Shown here: positions 8,179 to 32,480 of the stretch, one piece after another
Layout: every line of letters starts with the position of its first letter
Numbering within the stretch: the first letter of the stretch is position 1
Sequence record: NZ_CP119397.1
DNA from: a plasmid
Strand: one strand, 5' to 3'
DNA length: 64,000 nucleotides
Notes under the pieces: generated by a model
Told to the model about the DNA's origin: nothing
The model's database searches: none
The model's input: the letters and a program-made list of their open reading frames with translations, nothing else
Translations under genes and position numbers: made by a program

Positions 8179-8237
8179 GCTGTTTGCCCTTGCCCATTTC
8201 ATCGGGCACGCTATTTCATGACAAAGAGAAGATAACG

Positions 8238-9338: not shown

Positions 9339-9361
9339 TCGCCGCGATACGTGTATGCAGG

Positions 9362-9388
9362 GCGGCCGGTGGCCGCCCTTTTTTTTCG
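9362..9388. terminator. rho-independent terminator (gggcggccggtggccgccc + T8)
   Basis: GC-rich hairpin followed by a T-run, lying between convergent genes. Confidence 0.6.
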
Positions 9389-9391
9389 CCG

Positions 9392-10318
9392 TTAACACCC
9401 GGCGGCGATGAAATCCCCGTTGGCGCTGACCGGGATCACCGAGGTAAACAGCACCAGCGCAAACAGCATCAGCAGCGCGCCGCCGCACATCATCACGCCA
9501 CGGGCCACCGGCGGCAGGTAACGCCCTGCCAGCCCGCCCGGCGCGGCAATAATCCGCTCCCGCGCGTGGTGCACCAGCGTCGCCAGCAGTGTGACGGCCA
9601 GGGCCGTGCCGAGCGCCATCGCCATCACCGCGATCATGCCCCAGGTAAACATGCCGAGGGCATTGGCAAACACCAGGATCAGAATCGCGCCGCTGCAAGG
9701 CCGGATGCCGATGGCCGCGATCACCCACAGGGCGTTTTTCCCGCCGGTATCCGGCGGGTGAGAATGCCCGCAACCGCAGCCCGCGTCATGCTGCGCACTG
9801 CCGCGCCCATTCACCCCGGCGGCGCGCAGCATCACCACCAGCCCGAACGCGGCGATCAGCAATGCGCTGATTTTCTCCACCCAGTAGCGGCTGCGGCTGA
9901 GATCGCCCATCGAGAAATTAAACAGCACCGCCAGCACCAGCACGAACAGGATCGCGGTCACCCCCTGCGTCAGGCTGCCGAGCAGGGTGATGATCCGGCT
10001 GGTGTTCAGTTGCTGCCGGTGGCTGGCCAGATAGGTGGTGATAACAAATTTACCGTGGCCCGGCCCCACCGCGTGCAGCACCCCGTAGAGAAAACTGCAC
10101 AGCGTCAGCATCAGCCCGCCGCTGGCCTGGTGGTTATGCTGTTGCAGCAGATAGAGCACCAGAGAGCGGTGCAGGTAAATCTGCGCATTGAGGCAGGCCT
10201 GGATAAAGTCCGGCCAGTAGCGGCTGAGCAGCGCCGACGAGGCAGCCAGCAGGAGTGCGCCGGTCGCGAGCATGGCGAGGGCGGCAGGGTTGGCATTTTT
10301 CAGTGACAGACTCTTCAT
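9392..10318 (-). CDS. NicO/RcnA-family nickel/cobalt permease
   Basis: HAVGPGHGK signature and a Cys/His-rich loop (GCGCGHSHPPD). True start is MKSLSLKNA; the 447-aa ORF is an upstream extension. The ATG overlaps the stop of the ABC permease, so the two are translationally coupled. Confidence 0.7.
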   Translation of the reverse strand: MKSLSLKNANPAALAMLATGALLLAASSALLSRYWPDFIQACLNAQIYLHRSLVLYLLQQHNHQASGGLMLTLCSFLYGVLHAVGPGHGKFVITTYLASHRQQLNTSRIITLLGSLTQGVTAILFVLVLAVLFNFSMGDLSRSRYWVEKISALLIAAFGLVVMLRAAGVNGRGSAQHDAGCGCGHSHPPDTGGKNALWVIAAIGIRPCSGAILILVFANALGMFTWGMIAVMAMALGTALAVTLLATLVHHARERIIAAPGGLAGRYLPPVARGVMMCGGALLMLFALVLFTSVIPVSANGDFIAAGC

Positions 10319-12108
10319 CAGGCAGCCCCAATAGTGGTTGACCTGTTGACTATAGTTGCCCGTGCCCGTCTGCGCCGCCCCGCCAGCCCGGCGGTGGTCA
10401 CCGCCAGTACTGAAAACAGCACCAGCGCGCCACCGGGCGCAAGCACTGCCCAGCCTGCACGCTCGAGGTACGGCATCCCTTCGGCCAGCACCCGCCCCCA
10501 CTCCGGCGCGGGCGGCGGTGCGCCCAGCCCCAGGAAACCGAGCGCCGCCAGCGCCAGCACAATCCCCGGCAGCCGTAACATCGCATGGCGCAGCAACGGC
10601 CCGCTCAGCGCCGGGAGCAGATAACGCAGCGTCCGCCGCCACGGGCCGACCCCCAGCACCGGCAGAATGCGGATATGCGGCTGGGCGTTGATCTCGCTGA
10701 CCAGCGCGGCGGTGTGCGCCGCCAGCGGTGCCCAACTGGTGGCCATCACCGCCAGCGCCGCGCCCCCGGCGGTCGGGCCGTTCACCGCCGCCACCACCAG
10801 CCCGGCAATCACCGGCGGCATGGCGTTGGCGGCCTCCACCGGGCCGCTGCTCAGGCGCGGAAACAGCCCGGCCAGCAGCCCGATCGCCAGGCTGGCAAAC
10901 GTCACCGCCAGCGCCAGCGCACAGGTATGCAGCGCGCCATGCGCCACCCGCGCCAGCAGATCGCGCCCGGTGGCATCCGCCCCGAACGGCAGATCCCAGC
11001 CGGGCGGCTGCAAGCGCATAAACATCGGCGTGACAGGGTCACGCGGCAGGCCGGCGATAACCGTAATGAGCAGCAGCAGCGCACACGCAGCCGGGACGAT
11101 CCACGCCCCCGGCGGCAGGCGGGGCGCCGGCATGGCAGCCGGTAACGCCCCGGCGTGCAGTGCCGGGCCAAGCAGTGCGCGCCGTCCCAGATTGGCCGCT
11201 GCACCGACGCCACACGCCAGCAGCAACAGCAGCAGCAGGCCGGTCTGCAACGCCGGGAGATCCTGCGCCGCCACCGCGCCCAGTGTGGCGCGCCCCAGCC
11301 CCGGAATGGCGAACACTTTTTCCACCGCCATTGCCCCGCCGGTCAGCCCGATGATCACCAGCCCGACCTGTGACAGCAGCCCCGGCAGCGTGCGCCGGAA
11401 CACTGCCGCGGCAATCTGGCGGCGCGGCACACCGGCCATCTGCCAGGTCAACAGCCATTTCTCATGGAAGGTGGCGGCGAACGCATCAGAAAAGAGCCGC
11501 CCCAGCAGCCCCCCGGCCGGGATCCCCAGCGCCAGCGCCGGTAACACCGCATGGTGCAGGCTGCGCCAGCCAAAGGGCGGGAACGCCTGAAGCCAGACCG
11601 CCCCCACCAGCAACAACAGGGAGGCCAGCAAAAACTCCGGCAAGGCGGTCAGCGCGGCGGGCACGCTGCCGCCGGGGCGCTGCGCCCGGCCTTTCAGCCC
11701 GGCCAGAAACGGGCGCAGGCAGATAAGCCCGGCCACCAGCACGGCCACCAGCAGCGCAAACGCCATCAGCGTCAGGGAGACACCGGCTGCCTGCAACATC
11801 CCCGGCCCGACCGGCTGGCCGGACACCCAGGAGGTGCCGGCATCGCCGTGCAGCAGGCCGCGCAGCCACTGTTGCAGCAGTGCCGGCGGCCCTTGTTCCA
11901 GCCCGAGCGCCTCGCGGATGGCGTTGAGTGTCTCCGGTGTCGCCTCCTGATCGCCGGATCGCGCCCGCAGCAGCGCCAGCGCCGGATCGCGGCCGGAGAG
12001 CCACGGCAACATCCCCACCAGGGCCACCACCGCGCCCAGCGTGACGAGGCGTGACAGCAGCGGCAACAGCCTGTCTGCCCCCAGGCAGAATCGATGAAAA
12101 ACGCGCAC
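10318..12108 (-). CDS. ABC transporter permease, fused NikB-NikC/DppB-DppC-like double permease
   Basis: 596 aa. The N-half resembles DppB/NikB, and the C-half (PPGWDLPFGADATGRDLLARV...) resembles DppC/NikC. The two permease domains are fused in a single ORF. Confidence 0.75.
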   Translation of the reverse strand: MRVFHRFCLGADRLLPLLSRLVTLGAVVALVGMLPWLSGRDPALALLRARSGDQEATPETLNAIREALGLEQGPPALLQQWLRGLLHGDAGTSWVSGQPVGPGMLQAAGVSLTLMAFALLVAVLVAGLICLRPFLAGLKGRAQRPGGSVPAALTALPEFLLASLLLLVGAVWLQAFPPFGWRSLHHAVLPALALGIPAGGLLGRLFSDAFAATFHEKWLLTWQMAGVPRRQIAAAVFRRTLPGLLSQVGLVIIGLTGGAMAVEKVFAIPGLGRATLGAVAAQDLPALQTGLLLLLLLACGVGAAANLGRRALLGPALHAGALPAAMPAPRLPPGAWIVPAACALLLLITVIAGLPRDPVTPMFMRLQPPGWDLPFGADATGRDLLARVAHGALHTCALALAVTFASLAIGLLAGLFPRLSSGPVEAANAMPPVIAGLVVAAVNGPTAGGAALAVMATSWAPLAAHTAALVSEINAQPHIRILPVLGVGPWRRTLRYLLPALSGPLLRHAMLRLPGIVLALAALGFLGLGAPPPAPEWGRVLAEGMPYLERAGWAVLAPGGALVLFSVLAVTTAGLAGRRRRARATIVNRSTTIGAA

Positions 12109-12111
12109 GGC

Positions 12112-13617
12112 TTAGTCCGTTAACACTGTGGTGTCAGAGGTGACCAGCATCCGTTCACGCGGATCGCGCGCCGCCTCGCGTACGCCCGCCGCTTCGCCCT
12201 GGATAACCCGTTCATGCAGCAGCGGCAGGGCCGCATCAGAGGCCAGAATCAGCTGCTCGGCCGCCATGATCGCCTGCCGCCGTTCAGCCCCGGCCGGGAT
12301 GGCCGCCGCCTGCTCCAGCGCCTGATCGATGCGCGCATCACAGAGTTGCGACAGGTTAAACGACCCTTTACAGGCGAAATCGCTGTAGAGATAGGCCACA
12401 GGGTCGCCTGAGTCCAGCACCGTGGCGCGGGAGAGGATAAAGGCATCGAACTTGCCTGCCAGCGCGTCTGCTTCGATATGCGCGTACTCCCGCACCACCT
12501 GTTTCACCGTGAACCCGGCGGCGCTGAGTTGCTGGGCGAGATAGGTCGCGACTTCCGGCAGTTCGGCGCGGTCACTGAAGGTCGCCAGGGTGATGGTCGC
12601 GCCGTTGGGTGACGCCGGTGCAGTGGGTGCGGCCACCGGTTGACGCAACGCGGCCGCCCACGGCAGCGCCGGGCCAAGCAGCCCGTCGGCACGGTCAGCG
12701 CGGCGTTCATAGACGTTGTCGATCAGTTGCTGCCGGTTAAGTGCCTGACGTGCCGCCGCCCGCAATGCCGGGTCACGGAACGGGCCGGTGCGGGTGTTGA
12801 GGTACAGGGTATTGGTGCGCGGCATCGGCACTTCATGCACCCGTTGCGGGTCGAGCAGCGCCACCTGTGACACCGGCACCGCCTCGACGATGTCCGCGGT
12901 GTGGGTACGTAAGGCGGCGGCGCGCGCGGTGCCGTCCGGCACAAAGGCCACATCAATGCCCGCCGCGCGCGCTTTGGTGCCCCAGTAATGCGCAAAACGG
13001 TCGAGCCGGGCGCTGCTGGTGCCGTTGACCTGCGTCAGCACAAACGGCCCGGTGCCGGCTTTCACCGGGTTGACCACGCCGTTTTTGCCATAGGCGGAAG
13101 GCGCGAGGATGGCGAGTTGCGGGCTGGAGAGCCGCTGCGGGATCAGCGGGTCAGGCCGGGCGGTGGTGACGATCACGTTGTGATCACCGTCCGCCACCGC
13201 ATCCAGAGCTACGCCGTCGAGGATGCGCGGTTTCGGCGCGGCATGGGCGGCGGTGGTCAGCGCATTCACCACACTTTCGGCGGTCAGTGGGCTGCCGTCG
13301 TGGAACTGCACGCCTTCACGCAAGGTAAAACGCCAGCGCCGGGCATCAAGCTGTTGCCAGTGGGTCGCCAGCGCCGGTTGCGCCTCGCCTAATGGGTCCA
13401 GCGTCACCAGGGTTTCCGCCGTGCGCCAGCGGGAGAGCTTAAAGGCGTCGTCACTCAGCGGCGTCAGCCCGGAACGCGGCGGCTGAAGCATCGCCAGCCG
13501 GATCCGCGGCCCGTCGTCCTCCTGCGTTTCCGGCGGCGGTTCATTGAAACAGCCTGACAGCAACAGCATGCCGGCCAGCAGACCGGCCTTCGGCAGGGAA
13601 AAAAACGGGTTATTCAC
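12112..13617 (-). CDS. ABC substrate-binding lipoprotein, family 5 (NikA/DppA-like)
   Basis: GTG start with AAGGA RBS gives a signal peptide plus lipobox LLLSGC. Family-5 SBP length (~500 aa). Confidence 0.7.
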   Translation of the reverse strand: MNNPFFSLPKAGLLAGMLLLSGCFNEPPPETQEDDGPRIRLAMLQPPRSGLTPLSDDAFKLSRWRTAETLVTLDPLGEAQPALATHWQQLDARRWRFTLREGVQFHDGSPLTAESVVNALTTAAHAAPKPRILDGVALDAVADGDHNVIVTTARPDPLIPQRLSSPQLAILAPSAYGKNGVVNPVKAGTGPFVLTQVNGTSSARLDRFAHYWGTKARAAGIDVAFVPDGTARAAALRTHTADIVEAVPVSQVALLDPQRVHEVPMPRTNTLYLNTRTGPFRDPALRAAARQALNRQQLIDNVYERRADRADGLLGPALPWAAALRQPVAAPTAPASPNGATITLATFSDRAELPEVATYLAQQLSAAGFTVKQVVREYAHIEADALAGKFDAFILSRATVLDSGDPVAYLYSDFACKGSFNLSQLCDARIDQALEQAAAIPAGAERRQAIMAAEQLILASDAALPLLHERVIQGEAAGVREAARDPRERMLVTSDTTVLTD

Positions 13618-13637
13618 GGGATTGTCCTTTTTAACGC

Positions 13638-14414
13638 TCAGGAGGCGAGGCGCGGGGCCGTCAGCCGGGGAACCGCAGCCAGCAGGGCGCGGGTACAAGG
13701 GTGGGCCGGGCCGGCCAGTAACTGGGCGGTGGGGCGATCTTCCACGATCTGCCCCTGCTCCAGCACCACCATCCGCGGGCACAGGGCGGCCACGCAGGCC
13801 ATATCATGGGAGACCATCAGCATCCCCATGCCGGTTTCCGCCGCCAGGTGGGCGAACAGCGCGGTAATCTGCTCACGCAGCGGCAAATCCAGGCTGCTGA
13901 GCGGCTCATCCGCCAGCAAAAAGTCGGGCCGTAGGATGATGGCGCGGGCGATCGCCACCCGCTGCGCCTGCCCGCCCGAGAGCTGCCCGGCGCACTGGTG
14001 CGCGATGCTGCCCGCCAGCCCGACCTGATCCAGCACCTCGGCGATGCGTCGTGCCGGGTCACGTTCATGGCCCAACCGGCGCAACGGCTCAAGCAACAGA
14101 TCGCTGACGCGCATCTGTGGGTGCAGGCTGGTGGCCGGGTCCTGCGGGATGTATTGCACGCGGCGTCGGTAGTCGCGCAGCGAGCGCACCGACCCCGGCC
14201 GCACCGGCTGTTGTAAGCAGCAGATGGTGCCTTGCGTGGCCGGGGCCAGCGCCAGCAGCAGGTTCAGCAGTGTGGATTTGCCGCTGCCGGAGCGCCCCAC
14301 CAGCCCGATGCGCTCGCCCGCCTGCATATGCAGCGTGATGTCATGCAGCAGCGGCTGGGCGGTGTACGGCGGGCGGTAGCTTACGCCGTCCATTGTCAGG
14401 AAAGGCATCGTCAT
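13638..14414 (-). CDS. ABC transporter ATP-binding protein (NikE/DppF-like)
   Basis: Walker A GRSGSGKST, LSGGQAQR signature and Walker B LLLADEP. Confidence 0.8.
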   Translation of the reverse strand: MTMPFLTMDGVSYRPPYTAQPLLHDITLHMQAGERIGLVGRSGSGKSTLLNLLLALAPATQGTICCLQQPVRPGSVRSLRDYRRRVQYIPQDPATSLHPQMRVSDLLLEPLRRLGHERDPARRIAEVLDQVGLAGSIAHQCAGQLSGGQAQRVAIARAIILRPDFLLADEPLSSLDLPLREQITALFAHLAAETGMGMLMVSHDMACVAALCPRMVVLEQGQIVEDRPTAQLLAGPAHPCTRALLAAVPRLTAPRLAS

Positions 14415-15229
14415 AGCGCCCTCACCGCAGGCATCGCCGGGTGCAGCGGGGCAATCGCCTCCCCCGCGCGGCGGGCGGCGCTCACCAGCTCACGGGTATA
14501 GGGGTGTTGCGGGGCGTAAGTCAGCTGGTCAAAGGTGCCCTGCTCCACGATCCGCCCTTGCGCCATCACCAGCGCGCGTTGGCATAAATGGGCCGCGAGC
14601 GCGATATCATGGGTGATAAACAGCAGTGCAGGCGGTTCCGGTTGGGCGGTCAGGCGGGTCAGCGCGGCCACCACATGCTGCTGGGTGGTGAGATCCAGCG
14701 CGGTGGTCGGCTCATCGGCCACCACCAGCCGGTGGCGGCAGGCCAGCGCCAGCGCAATGCAGACCCGCTGGCGCTGGCCGCCGGAGAGTTGCATCGGGTA
14801 ACGGGACAGGATGGCCGCCGGGTCGTCAAAATCCACCTCGCGCAGCAGCGACGCAGCCCGCGCGGCGGCGTCGCCCGGCTGGGTCGCCAGCACCTTCATC
14901 AGTTGCTTCCCGACCGTCACCAGCGGGTTGAGCGCAGAGGCGGAGTCCTGAAAAATCGCGGCCACCCGCTGCCCTGCTGCGCGCCTGGCCGGGTGCAGCC
15001 CTGCTACCTCATGGCCGTCAAGGCGTACACTGCCGCGCCAGGTGGCCTCTGGCGGCAGCACGCCGAGCAGCGCCCCGGCCGTCAGGGATTTTCCGCAACC
15101 GGACGCGCCAATCAGCGCCACCCGCTCACCGGCCCGCAGGCTAAACGAGAGCGGCGACAGTTTTTCCTCACCGGCAATCGCCAGTGAAAACGCTGAAACA
15201 ACCAATAACTCTGCGGTTCCGTTCGCCAA
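14411..15229 (-). CDS. ABC transporter ATP-binding protein (NikD/DppD-like)
   Basis: Walker A GASGCGKS, LSGGQRQR and VVADEPTTALD. Probably a TTG start. Overlaps the next ATPase by 4 nt. Confidence 0.75.
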   Translation of the reverse strand: MANGTAELLVVSAFSLAIAGEEKLSPLSFSLRAGERVALIGASGCGKSLTAGALLGVLPPEATWRGSVRLDGHEVAGLHPARRAAGQRVAAIFQDSASALNPLVTVGKQLMKVLATQPGDAAARAASLLREVDFDDPAAILSRYPMQLSGGQRQRVCIALALACRHRLVVADEPTTALDLTTQQHVVAALTRLTAQPEPPALLFITHDIALAAHLCQRALVMAQGRIVEQGTFDQLTYAPQHPYTRELVSAARRAGEAIAPLHPAMPAVRAL

Positions 15230-15367: not shown

Positions 15368-16378
15368 TTAGCGCAGCAAGGGATTGCCGCTGCCGGTCAG
15401 CCCCGGCTGGGCGCTGAACCAGAGGAACAGCCCGGTCGCCAGCAGCAACAGCCCCCCGGCGAGGGTCAGGGAAGCGCGGCCGATACGTCGCCAGGCGGGC
15501 ACCGGGCCGCTGCGCAGGTTGCGCATCAACAGCCGCTGGAGGCTGTGCACGCCCAATGCCAGCAGCGAAATGGTCAGCGAGGTGCCGAACGCCATCACAA
15601 ACGCCGCCACCACGCCCCAGAGGTAAGCGCCGATCACCTTGGCGAACAGCAGCATCATGATGGCGCCCGAGCAAGGGCGCAGCCCCATCGATAGCACCAG
15701 CGCGACGCGGGTGCGCCAATCCCCCGCCGCTGCCAGTGCCTCATCGGTCGGCATATGGCGGTGGCCACAGCCGCAGTGTTCGCTGTGCACATGCGGCTCC
15801 CCCTTCAGCGGCCGCAATGCCCGGAACGGCTGCCGCAGGCTGTGCCAGTGCTGGCGCAGCGCCCTGAATGCGCGGCCCATCAACAGCACGCCCAGCCCCA
15901 TTACCAGCAGGTAACTGCCGCGCTCCAGCCAGAAACTGCTCTGGTGCAACTGGCGGGAGGAGAGATCAAACACGCCGAGCAGCAGCGTCACCAGCGCCAC
16001 TGCCACGCTGCCCTGTAACAGCGACGCGGCAAAGGTCAGGCACAGGCTACTTTTCAACCGGGAGGGGTGGGTCGCCAGATAGGTGGTGATCACCAGTTTG
16101 CCGTGCCCCGGCCCGGCTGCGTGGAGGATGCCGTACAACAGGCTGAACAGCACCAGAACCAGCCCGGCGCGTTGCGGCTCGGCCCTGACCTGCTGCATCA
16201 GCGCGGCGATCTGCCCGTTCAGGCTGCGCTGCCACTGGGTGCCCTGCCACAGCAGCGAGGGCCAGTGCTGCATCAGCCACAACCCGCCCAACAGCAGCAC
16301 GGCTGCCAGCAACAGCAGCGGCCAGAGCTGGAGCCAACGGCGGCGGCGTAAAGTCTGTGTCTGGGAAATCACTGGCAT
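15368..16378 (-). CDS. NicO/RcnA-family nickel/cobalt permease (second copy)
   Basis: HAAGPGHGK signature and HSEHCGCGHRH metal loop. Paralogous to gene 9392..10318. Confidence 0.7.
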   Translation of the reverse strand: MPVISQTQTLRRRRWLQLWPLLLLAAVLLLGGLWLMQHWPSLLWQGTQWQRSLNGQIAALMQQVRAEPQRAGLVLVLFSLLYGILHAAGPGHGKLVITTYLATHPSRLKSSLCLTFAASLLQGSVAVALVTLLLGVFDLSSRQLHQSSFWLERGSYLLVMGLGVLLMGRAFRALRQHWHSLRQPFRALRPLKGEPHVHSEHCGCGHRHMPTDEALAAAGDWRTRVALVLSMGLRPCSGAIMMLLFAKVIGAYLWGVVAAFVMAFGTSLTISLLALGVHSLQRLLMRNLRSGPVPAWRRIGRASLTLAGGLLLLATGLFLWFSAQPGLTGSGNPLLR

Positions 16379-16995
16379 GTCAGGGTCACCTTCTGGGCAA
16401 ACTGGCGGCCGAGATCCATGTCTTCCGGCGGCGCATCGGCTTTATCCAGCGACAGGGCATAGTTCTGGAGCGAGGCGTCAGGCGTTGGGGTGTCCAGCGT
16501 AATGGTGCAGGCGTCCATCTCCGGCGGGAGGTGCAGGCTGGCGGCGTTTTCATAATGCATATCAACGAAATAGGTCGGGTCAAAGGTGGAGAAGGTATAC
16601 GTCTGGCCTTTGAGCGGCTGCGGCGTGGCCAGCGGCAGCATATACTCCAGCACTGCCTTATGCCCTTCACGCAGCAGGCGGTAAGAGGGCGGCAGGTTAT
16701 GGAATTTGACCCGCTGGCCGTCATGGTAGAACTCGGTGAAATAGTGCTGGCCCAACACGTTGGCCATCACCTCAGCGGCGAGCTTTTTCCATACTTCCGA
16801 GTCGGGCGGCGCGTCCCCGGCGTCATACAGCAGATCGGCAGAAGTGATTTCATCCATCGTCCAGCGCATCTGCAGGCCGGTCAGCTGCGCATCCTGCTGG
16901 AGGAGCGTCGCCTGCATGGTGATAAAGCTGTGCGGGTGCGCCCACGCCAGCGGCGCGCAAACCGACAACAGCAGGGGCAGATAAGAGAGTCGCAT
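16369..16995 (-). CDS. DUF1007-family periplasmic protein (partner of NicO permeases)
   Basis: Signal peptide MRLSYLPLLLSVCAPLAWA. Overlaps the NicO start by 10 nt. DUF1007+NicO pairs are a recognised metal-transport module. Confidence 0.6.
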   Translation of the reverse strand: MRLSYLPLLLSVCAPLAWAHPHSFITMQATLLQQDAQLTGLQMRWTMDEITSADLLYDAGDAPPDSEVWKKLAAEVMANVLGQHYFTEFYHDGQRVKFHNLPPSYRLLREGHKAVLEYMLPLATPQPLKGQTYTFSTFDPTYFVDMHYENAASLHLPPEMDACTITLDTPTPDASLQNYALSLDKADAPPEDMDLGRQFAQKVTLTCQ

Positions 16996-17178
16996 AGTGC
17001 TACGGCGTCCTGGTTGTTAACCACAAGCGCGGACAATATCGGCTCCGGGCGGTGGTGGCAAGCGTGGGGAAAGCAGGCCCGCCGCCGCGGCGCCCTGTGC
17101 CATGTGGCACATCACCCGAATTTCTCGTTGCGCGTATGATACCCCGCAATTTATCCACATAGATTGCAAGGGATTCTT

Positions 17179-17676
17179 ATGCCGCAACACTACACCAATG
17201 CTCTGACCCCGGCCTTAGTGGCGTCGATAAATGAACCTGTGTTTACCGCTGCTCAGCTTGCGGAGATGAACGACGACGCCCGAGTGCTGATAGCCACCCA
17301 GGAAGCATTCCATCGCGCGCATCCGGTAACGGCCATTTACCGCCTCGCCGTGGCAGGCAGCCTGACCCGCCGCGGCGGCGTGGCCGATGAGTTTAACCCT
17401 GACCCAGAACAGGGCTATAAAATCCGGCTCAGTGACGGCCAATGGGTGAGTGTGCTGACAGAAGGCTGCACCGTCACCTACCCGGACGGCAGCACCGCGC
17501 GGATTATCAGCAGTGCCGGCAGCCTGCACATGTTTAAAGACCGGGGCGTGGCGCTGGTCGGCAGCCGCCTCGATAACGGCGATGAGATTATCAGCACGCC
17601 CCAGGGCAGCTGCTACCTCATCGCGCAGCAGGGCGTGCCGATGCCGGAGGATTTCCTGCTCGTCATCAGGGCGTAA
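17179..17676 (+). CDS. hypothetical protein upstream of PAAR-like toxin (possible adaptor/chaperone)
   Basis: ORF 17164..17676 with AAGGGA RBS before MPQHYTN. No recognisable motif. Position immediately 5' of the toxin gene, with a 4-nt gap. Confidence 0.4.
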   Translation: MPQHYTNALTPALVASINEPVFTAAQLAEMNDDARVLIATQEAFHRAHPVTAIYRLAVAGSLTRRGGVADEFNPDPEQGYKIRLSDGQWVSVLTEGCTVTYPDGSTARIISSAGSLHMFKDRGVALVGSRLDNGDEIISTPQGSCYLIAQQGVPMPEDFLLVIRA

Positions 17677-17679
17677 CCT

Positions 17680-19368
17680 ATGGGATACCGGCCCAATATT
17701 CTCGGGCGCGGCAAGGCGCTCTCCTGTGACAAAACCACCACCGGCGCACGGCTGCTCTCCTCGCTTCCGCTCACCCAGTACAACGTTTATGGCCACGCGG
17801 TTATCCGGCGCGGCGATGTCACCACCGACTGCCCTAAGTGCGGCCAGCGCGGCCGTGTGGTCGAGGGCGACACGCGCTTTACCATTCATGGCATCCCCGT
17901 CGCCGTTGACGGCGGGCAGGTAAGCTGCGGCTGCCCGCCCGGCACCAACCGCATCATCGCCCCGCTCGGGCAGTGGCTGGGGCGCGGCCCCTCGCCGCAA
18001 GAGGTGGCGCAGGAGAAGCACACCGCGATGCTGGCCGCCCAACAGGCGGAGCGGGAAGCCCAGGCGTTACAGCAGGCAGCAGCGCGCGAGCGCAACCGGG
18101 TGTTTGCCAAATCCTGTTTGCGCGGTGAGGGCTGTAACGATGCCGGGGACACCCCGGAGCCGCACACCCACTTTGCCGAGATGGGGATTTTCCAGGCGCT
18201 GCCGGAGGCGGACGTACCGCAGCACGCGCAGGCCGCAAAAAGAAAACCGCCCGCGCCGGAGGATATTCCAAAACCCAAAAAGCGCAGTGCGCTCTACCGC
18301 TGGCTGAACGGCAACCATGAGGAGAGGGACTATCAGGCGGCGGTTGCCGCCGCCAGCGCCGCCGCACGGGCACACACCGCCACCGCCGGGGCGGCGGTAC
18401 TTGAGCAGGTCGCGGGGCGCTTCACGCCCTACGGCACCTGGGCAGTACGCGCAGGCACGGTGGCCGCCGGGGGCTTTGGCGCGCCCGTCGCCGGGCTGCT
18501 GGTGGGGATGATGCCGGGGCGGCTCAATGACGGTGAGCAGGACTTTATCGACCGGATGCGCGCCGAACAGATGCGCACCGCCCCGAGCCGGGTGCGTTTC
18601 ACCTGGGAAAGCGATGCACAGGGCAACCCGGTGCCGCGCGGCTGGCACACGCCGCCGGGCCGGGACAGCGTGCGGGTGCGCAGCATGGACTGGGACAGCC
18701 AGCGGCAGGCGTATACCTTCACCACCGAGGAAGAACAGCCCGTCACGATTATCTGGACGCCGGACCGTTCCGGGGTGCATGTTCCCACGAACACCGGCAA
18801 CCCGAATCCTCCGAAGCTGCCAAACCCGGTGATGGTGAACCCGCTGCCCGACAGCACCGGTCTCCGGGCCACCACCAGCCCGTCCCCGGACGAGAAAAGT
18901 TTCGCGGATTACATCCTGATTCTGCCGGTGGCGGACATTCCGCCAATTTATATTTATCTGAGCAAGCCGCCGGTGGAATTTCTGGAGGTAAAACCGTACC
19001 GTGATTTTAACGGACGCTCCAGGCAGGGGCATTATCATGTGGATCACATGCCATCACGTCAGGCCGTAATTTTGTACTTACGGCGTAAGCATCCTGATTT
19101 ACGTGACAAGCAAATCAAAGAGATGGCCGATCAAGTGGCGGCAATTGCCATCCCTGAAAAAGTACACCGTCAGGAAAGCGCAACCTATGGTGGAAGAAAC
19201 CGCTCTCAAATGGAATTTGACTCTTATAACCTTCGGGCCGCTATCAATAAGGATTTTGACCAAATCAAACCGATATTGCTGGAAGAATATGGTGCGACAG
19301 AGGCAGAACTGGACGCCTGCAGAGAAGAAATGCACAGAATTAATACTGAACTGGGAATATACAAATGA
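17680..19368 (+). CDS. PAAR-like polymorphic toxin (PAAR-like N-term, S-type-pyocin-like middle, unassigned C-terminal toxin domain)
   Basis: N-term has Cys-containing PAAR-like repeats (VYGHAVIRRGDVTTDCPKCG / GIPVAVDGGQVSCGCPPG). Ala/Gln-rich linker. The middle region (PVPRGWHTPPGRDSVRVRSMDWDSQRQAYTFTT...IIWTPD) resembles the Pyocin_S domain. C-terminal ~150 aa contain GHYHVDHMPSRQ and have no confident family assignment. Stop overlaps the ATG of the next gene (ATGA). Confidence 0.6.
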   Translation: MGYRPNILGRGKALSCDKTTTGARLLSSLPLTQYNVYGHAVIRRGDVTTDCPKCGQRGRVVEGDTRFTIHGIPVAVDGGQVSCGCPPGTNRIIAPLGQWLGRGPSPQEVAQEKHTAMLAAQQAEREAQALQQAAARERNRVFAKSCLRGEGCNDAGDTPEPHTHFAEMGIFQALPEADVPQHAQAAKRKPPAPEDIPKPKKRSALYRWLNGNHEERDYQAAVAAASAAARAHTATAGAAVLEQVAGRFTPYGTWAVRAGTVAAGGFGAPVAGLLVGMMPGRLNDGEQDFIDRMRAEQMRTAPSRVRFTWESDAQGNPVPRGWHTPPGRDSVRVRSMDWDSQRQAYTFTTEEEQPVTIIWTPDRSGVHVPTNTGNPNPPKLPNPVMVNPLPDSTGLRATTSPSPDEKSFADYILILPVADIPPIYIYLSKPPVEFLEVKPYRDFNGRSRQGHYHVDHMPSRQAVILYLRRKHPDLRDKQIKEMADQVAAIAIPEKVHRQESATYGGRNRSQMEFDSYNLRAAINKDFDQIKPILLEEYGATEAELDACREEMHRINTELGIYK

Positions 19369-19832
19369 CAATGGATATTAAATCGCTGATATGCAGTTTA
19401 GAAGAACCCTATCAAGCTATTTGCGATGCGGGAATTATTACTTACCGAACGCCGCCGCAAGGCACACAGTGTGATCCTTATCTGACACTGGACATGAAAA
19501 ATGAAGGTGTTTTCTTGACCTTCACTAATGATGATAAAAAAGCACTTAGCGAGATCTCTTTAGAGCTTAAAACTGGCAGGAGAAAGGGGGTATATCCCAA
19601 TGAGCTTCTCGCCCCTTTAAAGCAGGATATGTCCCGTAGCTGGGTACATAAGGTCTTTGGATCACCGGATAAAAGCAACCCGCCAAAGATAGTTTTAAAA
19701 ACAGAAATTGGCTGGGTTGAGCGCTTTATGGTAGAGGGTTTTCATATTCCTATAGCGATGGTCTTTTACTATGACATGGAGGAAATGGCTGAGGCTGTCA
19801 CTTTCCTTCCGACCTCGAGATTGAGGTGGTAA
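19365..19832 (+). CDS. cognate immunity protein (family unknown)
   Basis: ATG overlaps the toxin stop. 155 aa. Two further paralogs lie downstream. Conserved WVHxxxGxP and C-terminal MPTSxLRW. Confidence 0.55.
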   Translation: MTMDIKSLICSLEEPYQAICDAGIITYRTPPQGTQCDPYLTLDMKNEGVFLTFTNDDKKALSEISLELKTGRRKGVYPNELLAPLKQDMSRSWVHKVFGSPDKSNPPKIVLKTEIGWVERFMVEGFHIPIAMVFYYDMEEMAEAVTFLPTSRLRW

Positions 19833-19911
19833 ATCCCGTCTGCCTGTATAGATTTCTGTGCAGGCAGAGTAATGGCAGGCAAGCCCTGCCGATATGAATA
19901 GGGCTGTACAA

Positions 19912-20379
19912 ATGACAGTAAACGTAGACGCCTTAATAAATAGCCTGGGGAAATCTTATAACGATATGCTTGAGGCTGAACTTATTCCCTATAAAACCCC
20001 CCCTACCGGATTTTCAGGTGATCCTGAGATCAGTCTGGATATGGCTAAAGAGGGGGTTTATCTGTCATTTAAGCGGGATGGGCGGATTTTACAGACTGTG
20101 ATCCTGAGCATTCAACATGACAAAGTAAGTAATTGGGTTTTCCCAAATGACCTGCCTTCCCCCCTACAAAAGATTATGTCAAGGCCATGGGTTCATGAAC
20201 ACATTGGTAAACCATTAAGAAGCGTACCTCCGAAAGTTATTATGAGACGAGCTTTTGGCTGGATGGATTTATACGAAGCTAAAGGTTGGGCAATCCCGAT
20301 CAGTATGCAAATCAGCTATGACGTGATGGATAATGTCAGAGCCGTCGCCTTTATGCCCACCGCCGAATTACGCTGGTAG
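19912..20379 (+). CDS. orphan immunity-protein paralog 2
   Basis: About 45% identity by eye to 19365..19832 and ~65% to 21198..21665. Start taken at MTVNVDALINS (the ORF-track start lies inside a duplicated CPCC-gene 3' fragment). Confidence 0.5.
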   Translation: MTVNVDALINSLGKSYNDMLEAELIPYKTPPTGFSGDPEISLDMAKEGVYLSFKRDGRILQTVILSIQHDKVSNWVFPNDLPSPLQKIMSRPWVHEHIGKPLRSVPPKVIMRRAFGWMDLYEAKGWAIPISMQISYDVMDNVRAVAFMPTAELRW

Positions 20380-20551
20380 CCTTATCACTTTTACCACCCC
20401 GCCCGCGCATGCCACTGCGCGGGCAGTGATGTGATTCAGTATCGTGTCGGTGAATTGTAATTAACACTTGAGCAACTTGATAAAAATGATGATATATTTT
20501 CACCACAATAAAACTCTATTAACTTAACTATAACGCGCTCAAAATATTTTT

Positions 20552-20731
20552 ATGGGAAAATTACACCTACGCCCTTGCTGTGGCGATAAAGAAATATATG
20601 AACCTGGATCATGTGAAATATGTGAGCGTTGTGGCTGGGAGGATGATCCAGCGCAGAGTAAGCATCCCGATACTTTACGGGGAGCGAACCATATGACGCT
20701 TAATGAAGCCAGGCAAGCCCTGCCGATATGA
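20552..20731 (+). CDS. CPCC-family cysteine-rich small protein
   Basis: 59 aa: MGKLHLRPCCGDKEIYEPGSCEICERCGWEDDPAQ... This matches the CPCC...C-x2-C-x-WEDD pattern of Cys_rich_CPCC proteins, which are often found in toxin/immunity loci. It falls below the length cutoff of the supplied ORF track. Confidence 0.5.
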   Translation: MGKLHLRPCCGDKEIYEPGSCEICERCGWEDDPAQSKHPDTLRGANHMTLNEARQALPI

Positions 20732-20886
20732 TAATCACCACATGGCAGCAAATATTCCGTTATTTTATATTTATTTACATACAAAGCCGCGGGAAACGAG
20801 TAGCCAGATGGAAAAATACCACGTGAAAATTTATGAATGGGATTCTCAACATGGTACTGTTGAAATATGAGAAAGGTTGAAAAGTA

Positions 20887-21138
20887 ATGATTTCTTATTC
20901 TATTGAGATATTTGATAAATGTAGTGAAGAGTTAATTAAAGAAATAAAAATACCTAATTATCAACTAGATCTAGTGATTGAGATCATGGGATTTGACACT
21001 ATAGAAAAAGAGTCCTTTATTAAGGGGGTGGGGGGTTTCAATGTTACAAAGGAACAGGCTGTCAAATTGGAATCCTTATTAATGGTAGAATTCCATTCAG
21101 AAAAATACATTATTCAGATTGCAGGTGGCGAGATATAA
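20887..21138 (+). CDS. hypothetical small protein (AT-rich, foreign-looking)
   Basis: 83-aa ORF with GAAAGG RBS, in a ~30% GC stretch between the CPCC gene and immunity paralog 3. Confidence 0.3.
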   Translation: MISYSIEIFDKCSEELIKEIKIPNYQLDLVIEIMGFDTIEKESFIKGVGGFNVTKEQAVKLESLLMVEFHSEKYIIQIAGGEI

Positions 21139-21197
21139 AAGCATTTATTTTCCCATTATTTTATGGATGGAATAAACAGTAAAATGGAATTTTATAA

Positions 21198-21665
21198 ATG
21201 ACCGTAAATGTTGATGCAATGATTAATAGCTTAGGAAAGAGTTACATTGAGCTTGTTGATTCAGGATTGATTGTGTACAAATCCCCGCCGAAAGGAGCGT
21301 CAGGCTCTCCTGTGCTTAGTCTGGAGATGGCATTAGAGGGAATTTTCTTATCCTTTAAACGTGATGGACGAATTTTAAAATCGATAACACTTCGGCTCCA
21401 ACATAATGAAAGTCATAATTGGGCTTTTCCTAATCAACTACCGCTTCCTTTACAAAATAATATGTCCCGCAGTTGGGTACATGAAAATATTGGGTCGCCA
21501 TTAAGAAGTGCGCCTCCCTACATTGTGATGAAACAGGCTTTTGGCTGGGCAGATCTGTATGAATCAAAAGGACGTCCTATACCCACCAATATGCAAATTA
21601 ACTATGACGTGATGGATAATGTAAGATCGGTCACCTTTATGCCCACGTCCGAACTTCGCTGGTAG
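21198..21665 (+). CDS. orphan immunity-protein paralog 3
   Basis: 155 aa: MTVNVDAMINSLGKSY...MPTSELRW. Clear paralog of the two genes above. Confidence 0.5.
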   Translation: MTVNVDAMINSLGKSYIELVDSGLIVYKSPPKGASGSPVLSLEMALEGIFLSFKRDGRILKSITLRLQHNESHNWAFPNQLPLPLQNNMSRSWVHENIGSPLRSAPPYIVMKQAFGWADLYESKGRPIPTNMQINYDVMDNVRSVTFMPTSELRW

Positions 21666-21682
21666 CGTCCCACACTTTACCC

Positions 21683-22739
21683 GGCTTTGTTGAATAAATC
21701 AGATTTCGGGTAAGTCTCCCCCGTAGCGGGTTGTGTTTTCAGGCAATACGCACGCTTTCAGGTATACCTGCTTTCGTCATTTTGTTCAGCGCTCGTACCA
21801 GGGCCATAGCCTCCGCAACCTGACCATCGTAGTCACGCAGCGTCAGTGAACCCCCGAACAGCTGTTTTACCCGGTACATCGCCGTTTCCGCTATCGAGCG
21901 ACGGTTGTAATCTGTTGTCCATTTCCACCGCGCATTACTCCCGGTCATTCGCTGATTAGCCACTGCACGGTTACGGTCTGCATATTCACCGGGCCAGTAA
22001 CCCGCACCTTTTCGGGGAGGGATAAGCGCGCTGATTTTCTTACGCCGCAGTTCATCGTGACATAGCCGGGTATCGTAAGCGCCATCGGCGGCGGCTGACC
22101 TGATTTTCCGGTGGGTTTGCCGGATTAACCCGGGGAAGGCCTCTGAGTCCGTAACGTTGTTCAGCGACAGGTCAGCGCAGATGATTTCATGTGTTTTACT
22201 GTCAACGGCGAGATGCAGCTTACGCCAGATACGGCGGCGTTCCTGGCCATGCTTTTTGACTTTCCACTCGCCTTCACCGAAGACCTTCAGCCCGGTGGAA
22301 TCAATTACCAGGTGTGCGATTTCACCCCGGGTGGGCGTTTTGAAACTGACATTAACCGACTTTGCCCGCCTGCTGACACAGCTGTAATCCGGGCAGCGTA
22401 GCGGAACGTTCATCAGAGAAAAAATGGAATCAATAAAGCCCTGCGCAGCCCGCAGGGTCAGCCTGAATACGCGTTTAATGACCAGCACAGTAGTGATGGC
22501 AAGGTCAGAATAGCGCTGAGGTCTGCCTCGTGAAGAAGGTGTTGCTGACTCATACCAGGCCTGAATAGCTTCATCATCCAGCCAGAAAGTTATGGAGCCA
22601 CGGTTGATGAGGGCTTTATTGTAGGTGGGCCAGTTGGTGATTTTGAACTTTTGCTTTGCCACGGAACGGTCTGCGTTGTCGGGAAGATACGTGATCTGAT
22701 CCTTCAACTCAGCAAAAGTTCGATTTATTCAACAAAGCC
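21683..22739 (-). mobile_element. IS903 (IS5 family), complete, 1057 bp
   Basis: 18-bp terminal inverted repeats ggctttgttgaataaatc at both ends. Flanked by the 9-bp direct repeat ACTTTACCC (21674..21682 and 22740..22748), a target-site duplication. The transposase is intact. Confidence 0.85.
21739..22707 (-). CDS. tnp: IS903 transposase (IS5 family, DDE)
   Basis: N-terminus MKDQITYLPDNADRSVAKQKFKITNWPTYNKALINRGS matches the IS903 transposase as recalled. Confidence 0.9.
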   Translation of the reverse strand: MKDQITYLPDNADRSVAKQKFKITNWPTYNKALINRGSITFWLDDEAIQAWYESATPSSRGRPQRYSDLAITTVLVIKRVFRLTLRAAQGFIDSIFSLMNVPLRCPDYSCVSRRAKSVNVSFKTPTRGEIAHLVIDSTGLKVFGEGEWKVKKHGQERRRIWRKLHLAVDSKTHEIICADLSLNNVTDSEAFPGLIRQTHRKIRSAAADGAYDTRLCHDELRRKKISALIPPRKGAGYWPGEYADRNRAVANQRMTGSNARWKWTTDYNRRSIAETAMYRVKQLFGGSLTLRDYDGQVAEAMALVRALNKMTKAGIPESVRIA

Positions 22740-22785
22740 ACTTTACCCCGACCCGCGCAGCTTATTGCGCGGGCGGGGTATGACA

Positions 22786-26649: not shown

Positions 26650-29600
26650 ATGAGCAACAACGCCCCCCAGTCCGCCTGGCCCGCCCCGGATGACCCGGCT
26701 GACGAACCGGCCTTTACGCTGGATGAGCGCGTGGTGTTTATGCCGCTGGCCCAGGATGGCTGCCTCACCTGGTCATGGTGCCGGCACCCGGTCTGCGGCC
26801 GCGAATACATTCTGGCCACCGCCGCCGGGGAAGAGGCGGAGCCGCAGGCGACGCTGCTGCTGAAAAATGAGTTCGCCCTGCGCGGCCACCTCGCGCCGGA
26901 CTGGGCGGTGATCCCGGTGGCCACGGCGCTGTATCACGGCCGCTACGCGCTGCTCTATCGCCCTTTCCCGTTTGAAACCCTGACGCGCATCACCGGCACC
27001 CCGGCCGGGGACATGGCAGTCTTCCTGGATCTGGCGCTGAACCTCTGCGCGCCCTTGTTGCAGATGCACCAGCACGGCCTTATCCACGGCGACATCAAAC
27101 CCGGCAACCTGTTTATCAATAATGACGGCAGTTGCCGCCTCGGCGGCTTCGGGCTGGCATCGGGCGCGACCGGCACCGGCGCACGCACCACCGTCTCGGC
27201 AGCGGGCGGGACGCTTGCCTATATGTCACCGGAACATGCCGCCCGTACCCGGCGCGCCGTGGACCACCGCAGCGATCTCTACAGCCTCGGCATCGTGCTG
27301 TATGAGCTGCTGACCGGCAGCCTGCCGTTTGACCTGACCGAGGGCGGGCAGGCGGAGTGGGTGCATCACCATATCGCCTCCGAGCCGCGCCCGCCGCATC
27401 AGGTACGCCCCGGCACGCCGGATATCCTCTCGTCGATTATTCTGCGGCTGCTGGCCAAATCCCCGGAAAACCGTTACCAGACCACCGAAGGGCTGATGGC
27501 CGATCTCCGCCGCTGCCGCGCCACCGTCTCCCCGTCCGGCAGCCTTATGCCCTTTCCGCTGGGTTTGCAGGATCGCGCGGCCGCCCTGCCGCTCTCTGAC
27601 GCGCTGTTCACCGGCCATCCGCAGAGCCAGGCGCTGCTTGAGGCCTTCAGCGGGGTAAACCACCGCGGCACGCAGGCGCTGGTGGTCATCAGCGGGCCGT
27701 CCGGAATCGGGAAATCGTCACTGATCGCCTCGGCGCTGAGTGCGCTGCAACACCAGCCGGTGCTGCTGGCGGTGAGCCGTGTGGATCAGTACCAACCGGC
27801 GCTGCCCTATGCGGTGCTGACGTCCGCCTTCCGGTCACTGGCGCTGCATATTCTCGGGCTGCCGGCGGCGGAGATTGCCCGCTGGAAAGCGCGGCTCAGC
27901 CAGACACTCGGCAGTTATGCCGGGCTGGCGGTGAACCTGGTGCCGGAGCTGGGCCTGTTGCTGGCGCAACCCTCGTGGATCCCGCCGGATACGCTGTCGA
28001 TTGATGCCCGTGCGCGTTTCAACCACATGGTGCTCTGCCTGATCAAAGCGTTCGCCACGCCCTGCTGCCCGCTGGTGCTGATGATTGATGACATCCACTG
28101 GGTGGATGCGGCCAGCCTGCAACTGCTGGAATATGTGGTGAGCAACAGCACCACACTGCCGCTGCTGATGGTGGTGGCGTACCGCGACGACACCCACACC
28201 CACGGCGGGCCGCCGCTGGCCGGGTTACGGGCTGCCGCGGCGAAGGTCACTGAGATCCGGCCGGAACCGATGACGGTAAAGGGCGTCACGCGCTGGCTGG
28301 CAGACGCCTTCCAGACACGGGTAGCGGGCATTGCCTCCCTGGCGGCGCTGGTGCACGAAAAAACCGGCGGCAACCCGCTGTTCGTGCAGCAATTTGTGAA
28401 ACGCATCGTGGATGACGGGCTGGTGACCCACCATACCCCGCATAAAAAATGGCATTACGATCTGCCGGCCATCCGCGCGCGCCATTACACCGAGAATGTC
28501 GCCGGGCTGGTGCTGCAACAACTGGCGCAGATGCCGCCCGACACGCGGAAATTGCTCGGCAGCCTGGCCTGCCTGGGCAATGCCGGGAATCTGGCGGTGC
28601 TCACCCGCGTGCTGGGAACCGGCATCACTGAAATGTGCCGGGTGCTGCACCCGGCCGTGGCGGCCCAGTTGATCACGTTGTCCGTCAATGAGTACGCATT
28701 TACCCATAACCGGGTGCAGGAAGCCGCGTTTGCGCTGCTGGACCCGGCGGAAAAGAGCCACCTGCATCTGGCCACGGCCAGCCTGCTGGCGGAGATGTCG
28801 CAACAGGCGACCGGCAACGACACGCTGTTCCGGGCGGTTCACCATGTGGCATCGGCGATTGAGGCGATTGAACCGCTGCCGCAGCGCCGGATGTTCCGCG
28901 AACTGAGCCTGCTGGCGGCCCAGCGGGCCAAACGCACCGGCGATTCGCTCTCGGCGCTGGGTTACCTGCGCACCGCCCGCGCGCTGGCCGACAAAAATGC
29001 GCCGGACGATCACCAGCTCACCTTCACGCTGGATCTGGAAGAGGCGGAGTGCGAGTTTCTGCTCGGCAACCTCGCCACCGCGGCAAGGCTTTGTGCGCAA
29101 CTGGCGGGCCGGCCCGGCGGGCTGGCGGAAAAAGCGGTGGCTGCCTGCCTGCTGGCGGAGATCCACATGCGGCAATCGCACCGGCAACAGGCGCTGGAGA
29201 CGGCCATCGCCTGGCTGTCGGTGTTCGGCATTTCGCTCAGCCGCTACCCGGACGTGCGCGAATGCGACGACGCCCATGAGGCAATCGTCGCACGGGTAGG
29301 CGACGATCCGGCAGCGGTGTTCAAGGCCCTGCCGCGCATGGATGACCGGGATACCGAAGCGGTCATGAACCTGCTCGCCAGCGCCGGGATTTTCGCCAGT
29401 TTCTGCTGCCCGCGCCTGCATTTCCTGATCCTCTGCCGGATGCTGCACCTGACGCTCGACCACGGCATGACCGGGGCCGGGGCGACGGCGCTGGCCTGGT
29501 TCGGCGTGTTGATCGGCCACCGCTACGAGACGTACCAGCGTGGTTTCCGCTATGGCCTGCTGGCGCGGGAGCTGGTCAGCCGCCACGGCTACCTTAATGC

Positions 29601-32229: not shown

Positions 32230-32480
32230 AAATGGCACACAACGCCGCCGTTTTCCCGCCCCTGGCAATAACCGGCAACTTTTCTAACGCGCACCCCCAG
32301 CGATAATGTTGGGGGTCAGAGAAGGCGTGGCCCCCTACCTTAAATAATCAGTATCACTGGCAGGTGCTGCCTATAATGCATTAAATCAACAGGCAGAGTA
32401 TTTTCTTAGGGATTTTACAGGCACCGATCTTGTTGAATGTTCTTATCTGATTCTGGCTTGGAACGATGTATAATCATCCG

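Follow-up and report, generated by a model that had tools for sequence, protein, structure and literature searches.

A gene cassette at positions 17,179 to 19,832 of a 64,000-nucleotide (nt) stretch of the plasmid record NZ_CP119397.1 (the whole stretch analysed, hereafter the window) encodes a PAAR-led toxin with an overlapping immunity gene, and raises the question of what the C-terminal domain of this toxin does and how the protein could reach a target cell from a locus at which no VgrG or Hcp was found. The window belongs to plasmid p251 of Chimaeribacter arupi DSM 115072, a blood-culture isolate that carries p251_DSM115072 (PMC10587679). Our answer, to which we assign a probability of about 0.8, is that p251 carries here an auxiliary ('orphan') effector module of a type VI secretion system (T6SS), comprising a DNase toxin and a translationally coupled, TsiN-like immunity protein.

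A scan for open reading frames (ORFs) confirmed the three genes that a sequence-only reading of this DNA had proposed, all co-directional on the plus strand and closely packed. The first, the upstream gene (17179..17676, +, start codon ATG), encodes 165 amino acids (aa) and is an exact match to the RefSeq entry 'hypothetical protein P0E69_22345'. Three nt after its stop begins the toxin gene (17680..19368, +), whose 562-aa product is identical to WP_304483922.1 and combines a PAAR domain, a linker, a Pyocin_S or inner-membrane translocation (IMT) domain and a putative TseN-type DNase domain; both database entries are plasmid proteins of Chimaeribacter arupi. The toxin gene ends in AAA TGA and the immunity gene (19365..19832, +, 155 aa) starts with ATG ACA, the junction ...AAATGACAATGG being the 4-nt ATGA overlap from which an effector–immunity arrangement had already been proposed.

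The C-terminal domain as a candidate TseN-class DNase

Profile searches, named by the sequence-only reading as a check on both proteins of the pair, were silent on the toxin C-terminus and informative on the immunity protein. Toxin residues ~427-562 matched zero Pfam families even at E <= 10, and NCBIfam and single-sequence Protein Data Bank (PDB) searches with the C-terminal domain (residues 436-562, 127 aa; 18985..19368, +) were equally empty, while the immunity protein fell into PF19929 (DUF6392) over its full length (residues 1-151; 183 bits, cutoff 25.9). A relationship of the toxin domain surfaced only through a family profile and a structure model. Searched against PDB sequences, a profile of 25 C-terminal homologues retrieved TseN at E 5.3e-8 (36.5 bits), with the DHmPS of the profile aligned to the DHTPS of TseN and the invariant His of 'IPxxVH' to an Ala, residue 78 of the chain in the crystal of the TseN H254A mutant. 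In its predicted structure, the domain adopts the fold of chain B (TseN) of PDB entry 9J9W, at 23% identity.

TseN is a T6SS effector of Acidovorax citrulli that degrades plasmid and genomic DNA and loses both toxicity and activity in the H254A mutant; it was reported as a new DNase class without structural relatives, in October 2025, with a structure of the pair that it forms with its immunity protein TsiN (PDB 9J9W; PMC12574953). The nuclease activity at which the sequence-only reading had hinted therefore stands, through the homology to TseN, as the best reading: the C-terminal domain is probably a TseN-class DNase. The ground originally offered for that hint, a 'His cluster' (HYHVDH), does not hold, since only H456 and H496 are invariant and H451 and H453 vary. 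Across divergent carriers, the invariant residues are D455-H456 (the DHxPS motif), H496, S500, T502 and N507; H496 (codon 19165-19167) is invariant in both family alignments and would be the equivalent of TseN H254 if, as assumed, the 156-residue crystallised chain covers residues 177-332, which makes position 78 residue 254.

Delivery as proposed, combined with an activity other than that of a DNase, such as cleavage of tRNA or rRNA or action on some other cytoplasmic target by a reused TseN fold, appears unlikely. The identity to TseN is just 23%, IMT-linked toxins include rRNases and tRNases besides DNases (PMC9040868), an rRNase occupies the same position in a paralogue on the sister plasmid p353, and the mechanism and metal dependence of TseN are established no further than H254 (PMC12574953). 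However, the family and TseN have the active-site His and the DHxPS, S/T and RN motifs in common, all of them invariant across the family, and the immunity fold is conserved as well, which argues for a conserved active-site surface.

The domain is widely distributed. A word-indexed search returned 59 relatives, from Enterobacterales only and all short (76-236 aa), giving the impression of a domain that exists mainly as orphan fragments; this impression was overturned by an exhaustive profile search of 1.84 billion cluster representatives (50% identity, E <= 1e-3), which placed the domain in 811 representatives, among which full-length relatives of 450-580 aa are common. In 150 of the 150 representatives listed, the domain is C-terminal. 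A Pfam survey of 65 longer carriers recovered Pyocin_S in 35, PAAR in 10, RHS repeats in 4, CdiA-type DUF637, haemagglutinin or TPS domains in 3 and a Cloacin-type colicin N-terminus in 1 (P0070), a spread that, at the sequence level, is the signature of a polymorphic-toxin C-terminal module. Some carriers, namely P0089 and P0098, have a Col-Pyo_DNase domain (PF21431) between Pyocin_S and the TseN-like C-terminus and could thus contain two nuclease-type domains.

The immunity protein and the identity of the pair

Several homologues of the 155-aa immunity protein are named 'pyocin immunity protein' by NCBI, and a Klebsiella preprint describes a cluster of one S-type pyocin protein and three DUF6392 proteins. 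Pfam as searched lists the family as DUF6392, the precomputed annotation of public contigs calls it 'CdiI_5', and a change of name may lie behind this; our literature search found no paper that uses PF19929 or CdiI_5 for the DUF6392 family. A fold search with the predicted structure of the immunity protein identified TsiN (9J9W chain A) at 16% identity, and neither single-sequence nor profile searches of the protein against PDB sequences found TsiN.

Because the two halves of the pair independently match the two chains of one crystal structure, there is strong evidence, from profile and structure prediction together, that 17680..19368 and 19365..19832 form a TseN/TsiN-type effector–immunity pair. 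That the DUF6392 protein neutralises the adjacent toxin is suggested by conserved adjacency with a 4-nt overlap, found in the window and also at locus L002, where a 549-aa PAAR-Pyocin_S relative is followed in the same manner by a DUF6392 gene. The expectation that both the toxin and the immunity family 'may be undescribed' has to be given up, as the immunity protein belongs to PF19929 and both proteins are predicted fold homologues of TseN and TsiN (9J9W).

The PAAR-Pyocin_S chassis and the route of delivery

The N-terminal part of the toxin agrees with the PAAR-led polymorphic toxin with a Pyocin_S centre that had been proposed from the sequence. The PAAR domain (residues 17-86; 17728..17937, +) matches PF05488 with 43.2 bits (cutoff 27) over profile positions 3-67 of 70, and the Pyocin_S domain (residues 295-426; 18562..18957, +) matches PF06958 with 108.6 bits (cutoff 22.5), the toxin domain beginning ~10 residues further on; NCBIfam adds a weak VPA1263 match over residues 226-429. 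The IMT (Pyocin_S) domain is needed for the cytoplasmic import of pyocin G, in a manner dependent on FtsH and TonB1, and is common to pyocins and T6SS nuclease effectors, with DNases, rRNases and tRNases among the attached toxins (PMC9040868). A protein with this PAAR-Pyocin_S architecture, YPK_0952, is a DNase secreted by T6SS-3 (PMC11237486). The fusion of the toxin domain to its own PAAR and Pyocin_S/IMT domains implies Gram-negative targets, and the occurrence in Enterobacterales of a TseN fold joined to PAAR and an inner-membrane translocation domain points to antibacterial use.

Two segments outside the assigned domains are also of interest. Both lie in the linker between PAAR and Pyocin_S (residues ~140-165 and 258-281, window ~18097-18174 and 18451-18522): a 'VFAKSCLRGxGC' motif, found again in P0064, P0075, P0078 and P0092, unrelated proteins that also carry this toxin domain, and a Gly/Ala-rich hydrophobic stretch, AGTVAAGGFGAPVAGLLVGMMPG, which resembles a glycine-zipper membrane segment.

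The scan covered 27 ORFs, namely those of the cassette and its flanks and the largest ones in the window, without exhausting the small genes; it turned up neither VgrG nor Hcp and no DUF2169 gene, so that the locus indeed lies away from T6SS core genes, as had been noted from the sequence. A genome-wide look at the T6SS, also proposed there, is answered by the genome paper: the chromosome of DSM 115072 encodes a complete T6SS of 23 genes, vgrG and hcp included, besides which a second cluster, a partial one, is reported (PMC10587679). Given this complete chromosomal system, a window without vgrG and hcp does not mean a genome without a T6SS.

The setting nevertheless recalls a diffusible S-type bacteriocin of the pyocin or colicin kind, taken up through an outer-membrane receptor and independent of T6SS delivery: the gene is plasmid-borne, a small immunity gene adjoins it, no T6SS genes lie nearby, the same C-terminal domain stands behind the Cloacin-type colicin N-terminus of P0070, and YPK_0952 also killed independently of contact (PMC11237486). 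We regard this as quite improbable. The N-terminus is a PAAR domain above the Pfam threshold and not a receptor-binding or Tol/TonB-box region; no ORF resembling a lysis protein was seen in the cassette; positions 16456-21554 contain zero matches to a LexA box, hence none upstream of the operon; the PAAR-like protein encoded by the upstream gene also accompanies PAAR effectors with lipase and other non-bacteriocin cargo; and the release of YPK_0952 still needed T6SS-3 (PMC11237486).

The upstream gene and its PAAR-like product

The upstream gene, for which the role of a dedicated adaptor had been suggested, constitutes a question of its own and is the component of the module about which least has been described. 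The sole Pfam signal of its 165-aa product is a weak PAAR_motif match (15.3 bits), and the classical adaptor families DUF4123/Tap, DUF1795/Eag and DUF2169 gave no match at E <= 1. Its 232 homologues measure ~160-168 aa, and the more distant of them carry a PAAR-domain annotation. PF05488 is matched by 21 of the 37 that were aligned (best E 2.5e-9); a profile of the family had zero matches against PDB sequences. By these comparisons, the protein is a divergent PAAR-like domain with an N-terminal extension of ~55 aa.

The neighbourhoods of this partner gene were scanned in one genome per species, yielding 79 loci from Enterobacterales, Pseudomonas and Xanthomonas with 65 downstream ORFs of at least 200 aa. 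A PAAR motif is present in 59 of these 65 directly downstream ORFs, and the cargoes include Pyocin_S (15), Tle1-like (8), Cytotoxic (7), Col-Pyo_DNase (4) and Ntox44 (3) domains. For example, in Enterobacter bugandensis 3 nt separate the partner gene from a PAAR-Pyocin_S-Cytotoxic effector downstream, and in Pantoea stewartii it precedes a PAAR-Tle1-like lipase by 5 nt; the gap is ~-14 to +12 nt in most loci and wider in one Xanthomonas locus. Since a PAAR effector follows in 59 of 65 cases whatever its cargo, the partner tracks the PAAR chassis and not the toxin. None of ten large ORFs sampled just upstream of such partner–effector pairs elsewhere encoded VgrG, all being housekeeping genes, and the partner–effector module is typically an orphan locus.

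Of the adaptor proposal, the dedicated accessory role thus survives, by virtue of the position upstream of PAAR effectors, and membership in a classical adaptor family does not, the protein being PAAR-like instead. Tentatively, and at somewhat less than even odds, the partner may belong to a class of T6SS accessory proteins not yet described, with a PAAR fold and a ~55-aa N-terminal extension, dedicated to one subclass of PAAR-fused effectors, for which it could serve as a chaperone, a co-spike element or a PAAR mimic. As a mimic, it might keep the effector's own PAAR domain competent for loading onto VgrG. No paper on the partner–effector pairing was found in our literature search. The partner gene gives a concrete starting point for testing how PAAR effectors that are encoded alone, at a distance from any vgrG, come to be loaded.

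Proposed mechanism and evidence against it

In the proposed mechanism, the N-terminal PAAR domain would cap a VgrG spike, supplied by the chromosomal T6SS, at its tip, with the 165-aa partner probably assisting in folding, stabilisation or spike loading, and firing of the T6SS would carry the effector into an adjacent Gram-negative cell. There, the Pyocin_S/IMT domain would move the C-terminal domain through the inner membrane of the target, and the TseN-class domain, with His496 as its key catalytic residue, would degrade the target DNA. The producer would be guarded by the TsiN-like DUF6392 protein, most likely by blocking the active-site pocket as TsiN does, and additional immunity-type genes downstream (two DUF6392 genes, a DUF7683 gene and a CPCC gene) would act as orphan immunity against related toxins of competitors. 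The scheme builds on domain content, the two fold homologies, a cassette swap between plasmids and the synteny of the partner, with the presence of the T6SS taken from the genome paper; from these we infer that the toxin is a DNase and is delivered by the T6SS, as well as the roles given to the IMT domain and the partner and the specificity of immunity.

Several observations weigh against this interpretation. At 23% (TseN) and 16% (TsiN) identity, the substrate, DNA or RNA, could differ from that of TseN. The equation of H496 with H254 hangs on inferred chain numbering and not on the wild-type TseN sequence, and of the conserved TseN residues that were mutated only H254A abolished toxicity (PMC12574953), which leaves the role of the invariant DH motif unclear. 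The DUF6392 profile misses TsiN by sequence, the link being a predicted structure. Additionally, vgrG, hcp and classical adaptor genes were not found near the locus, and the presence of the C-terminal domain on the colicin-like P0070 makes a T6SS-independent route conceivable from sequence. Finally, the partner gene is mostly deleted at the p353 paralogue and absent at locus L002, and is thus not universally required in cis; the p353 paralogue could possibly be served in trans by the p251 partner.

Comparison with known systems

The closest characterised relative, TseN-TsiN of Acidovorax citrulli AAC00-1 (9J9W), shares both predicted folds with the window pair (toxin 23%, immunity protein 16% identical) in a different setting. 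TseN, described as antifungal, travels as a cargo effector: it bears an N-terminal FIX motif together with nucleolar localisation signals, and its loading depends on VgrG5, a separate PAAR5 and a DUF2169 chaperone (PMC12574953), whereas the window toxin begins with PAAR and Pyocin_S and its locus has no vgrG or DUF2169 neighbours. On these comparisons, the window toxin belongs to the TseN toxin-domain family without being orthologous to TseN as an effector.

YPK_0952/YPK_0953 of Yersinia pseudotuberculosis (PMC11237486) resemble the window pair in combining PAAR and Pyocin_S with a small downstream immunity gene. The spacing of F441-Y450 in YPK_0952, equal to that of F443-Y452 in the window toxin, had made a common C-terminal domain conceivable; this was ruled out by the C-termini read from the cloning primers, which are ...DKMDYWNDQ for YPK_0952 and ...QGRKVI for YPK_0953, in contrast to ...GIYK for the window toxin and ...SRLRW for its immunity protein. 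Ppp1-3 of Enterobacter bugandensis (PMC10763514) are, as here, lone PAAR-Pyocin_S proteins (521-579 aa) outside T6SS clusters. At L003-L005, the 165-aa partner gene again precedes, by 3 nt, the 521-aa form that carries a 'Cytotoxic' domain. The description of Ppp1-3 is in silico only, with C-termini either unassigned or colicin-E3-like and with partner and immunity genes undiscussed (PMC10763514). VPA1263 of Vibrio parahaemolyticus and the Hcp-ET/Usp-type effectors likewise place Pyocin_S/IMT between a loading module and a nuclease, but their loading module is MIX or Hcp and their toxin an HNH DNase, whereas the window toxin is loaded, presumably, through PAAR.

What was already known comprises the PAAR-Pyocin_S chassis (Ppp1-3, YPK_0952), the TseN and TsiN folds and the immunity family in Pfam. 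In the literature searched, we did not find the identification of the enterobacterial C-terminal family and DUF6392 with TseN and TsiN, the breadth of the family or the partner gene. A widespread and unannotated toxin domain without a Pfam model (811 clusters) can thereby be given a putative function, based on profile and structure prediction, and DUF6392 becomes tied to the structurally characterised TsiN. Furthermore, the TseN DNase fold appears far more widespread than first described, extending over PAAR, Rhs, CdiA and colicin-like carriers, and this fold, introduced as part of an antifungal cargo effector of Acidovorax, is a general polymorphic-toxin module.

Cassette exchange and the orphan immunity array

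The immediate surroundings of the pair include features on which the sequence-only reading was silent, namely two DUF6392 paralogues, a CPCC gene, a DUF7683 gene, an IS903B copy and a sharp drop in GC content. GC falls from ~0.66-0.72 to ~0.43-0.50 near 18900 (toxin residue ~407), within the toxin gene, and stays low throughout the array, a change that, as far as composition can tell, is the mark of a swapped cassette.

The sister plasmid p353 (NZ_CP119396.1) of the same strain carries a paralogue, WP_304483710.1, of the colicin E3/pyocin S6 cytotoxin family. It shares PAAR, linker and Pyocin_S with the window toxin, at 94% nucleotide identity over window positions 17601-18968 (to toxin residue ~429); beyond that residue it consists instead of a colicin E3 rRNase module, followed by an E3-type immunity gene. 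The GC drop and a nearly invariant LSKPPVEFLEV junction fall at this same breakpoint, and the alignment shows that toxin cassettes have evidently been swapped between the p251 and p353 paralogues. These two megaplasmids of one clinical Chimaeribacter arupi isolate thus offer a clean natural example of cassette exchange on a 94% identical chassis, with orphan immunity genes alongside. A terminator-like hairpin, TGGCGGACATTCCGCCA and then ATTTATATTT, lies within the toxin coding sequence at 18927-18954, in the zone of the GC drop and ~20-40 nt ahead of the end of p353 homology (18968), near the cassette junction; its position is probably coincidental.

Downstream of the cognate immunity gene follow, all on the plus strand, a first orphan DUF6392 gene (19894..20379, 161 aa; PF19929, 233 bits), a Cys_rich_CPCC gene (20552..20731, 59 aa; PF14206, 52.9 bits), a DUF7683 gene (20887..21138, 83 aa; PF24731, 63.3 bits) and a second orphan DUF6392 gene (21198..21665, 155 aa; PF19929, 231 bits). 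The two orphan DUF6392 proteins are 63% identical to each other and 38-42% identical to the cognate immunity protein (38% for the first), and tblastn with 25 family members against the whole window detected no toxin remnants ahead of the orphan DUF6392 genes. By its position alone, the CPCC gene is probably an orphan immunity-type gene. In the Enterobacter bugandensis loci L003-L005, a DUF7683 gene directly follows the PAAR-Pyocin_S-Cytotoxic effector with a 4-nt overlap with its stop, for which reason the DUF7683 gene of the window is probably an orphan immunity gene directed against colicin-E3-type ('Cytotoxic', rRNase-type) PAAR-Pyocin_S toxins; its product has no similarity to the p353 colicin-E3 immunity protein (E 0.21).

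Downstream of the p353 paralogue lies a DUF6392 sequence ~80% identical to the second copy of the window and split by a stop into ORFs 10063..10248 and 10252..10530 (the p353 locus, L001, spanning 8001-10577), and on its upstream side the paralogue has lost the greater part of the partner gene (window 17188-17600). Together with the adjoining IS903B on p251 and the short lengths (76-236 aa) of most homologues of the C-terminal domain in the word-indexed search, these losses on the sister plasmid might suggest that the window cassette, too, is a decaying and non-functional relic, unloadable, for instance, because its VgrG partner is missing. Such an outcome is highly improbable, as the three ORFs of the window are intact and tightly coupled (3-nt gap, 4-nt overlap), every family-invariant residue is present and the exhaustive search found full-length relatives of 450-580 aa to be common; a functional effector module remains the preferred interpretation.

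Repeated elements punctuate the array. A perfect 22-nt direct repeat, CAGGCAAGCCCTGCCGATATGA, has one copy at 20710-20731, forming the 3' end of the Cys_rich_CPCC gene, and one at 19876-19897, directly ahead of the first orphan DUF6392 gene, whose start codon it overlaps; cassette shuffling that kept an ATGA-type junction appears to have left this repeat as a scar. REP-like GC-rich hairpins, ACCCCGCCCGCGCATGCCACTGCGCGGG, stand in inverted orientation at 20396-20423 and 22752-22779 and flank the CPCC gene, the DUF7683 gene, the third DUF6392 gene of the window (the second orphan) and IS903B. Since homology to p353 stops at 20426, the hairpin-flanked segment may be a later insertion.

Genomic surroundings

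The array ends with IS903B (IS5 family; 21683..22739, -), bounded by inverted repeats at 21683-21715 and 22707-22739 and containing a transposase gene at 21739..22707 (NCBIfam IS5 transposase, 357 bits); this copy is 99-100% identical to IS903B on thousands of plasmids. On the 5' side, the effector module is bordered by metabolic genes and by no mobility genes: a NicO-type nickel/cobalt transporter and a DUF1007 protein are encoded divergently upstream of it (15368..16995, -), adjoined by an ABC peptide/nickel transport operon (10318..15229). Further downstream, at 26650..32229 (+), lies the gene for an 1859-aa multidomain sensor with Ser/Thr protein kinase, AAA_16 ATPase, GAF, PAS, HisKA and HATPase_c domains, and just past it, at 32001-33000, GC content drops.

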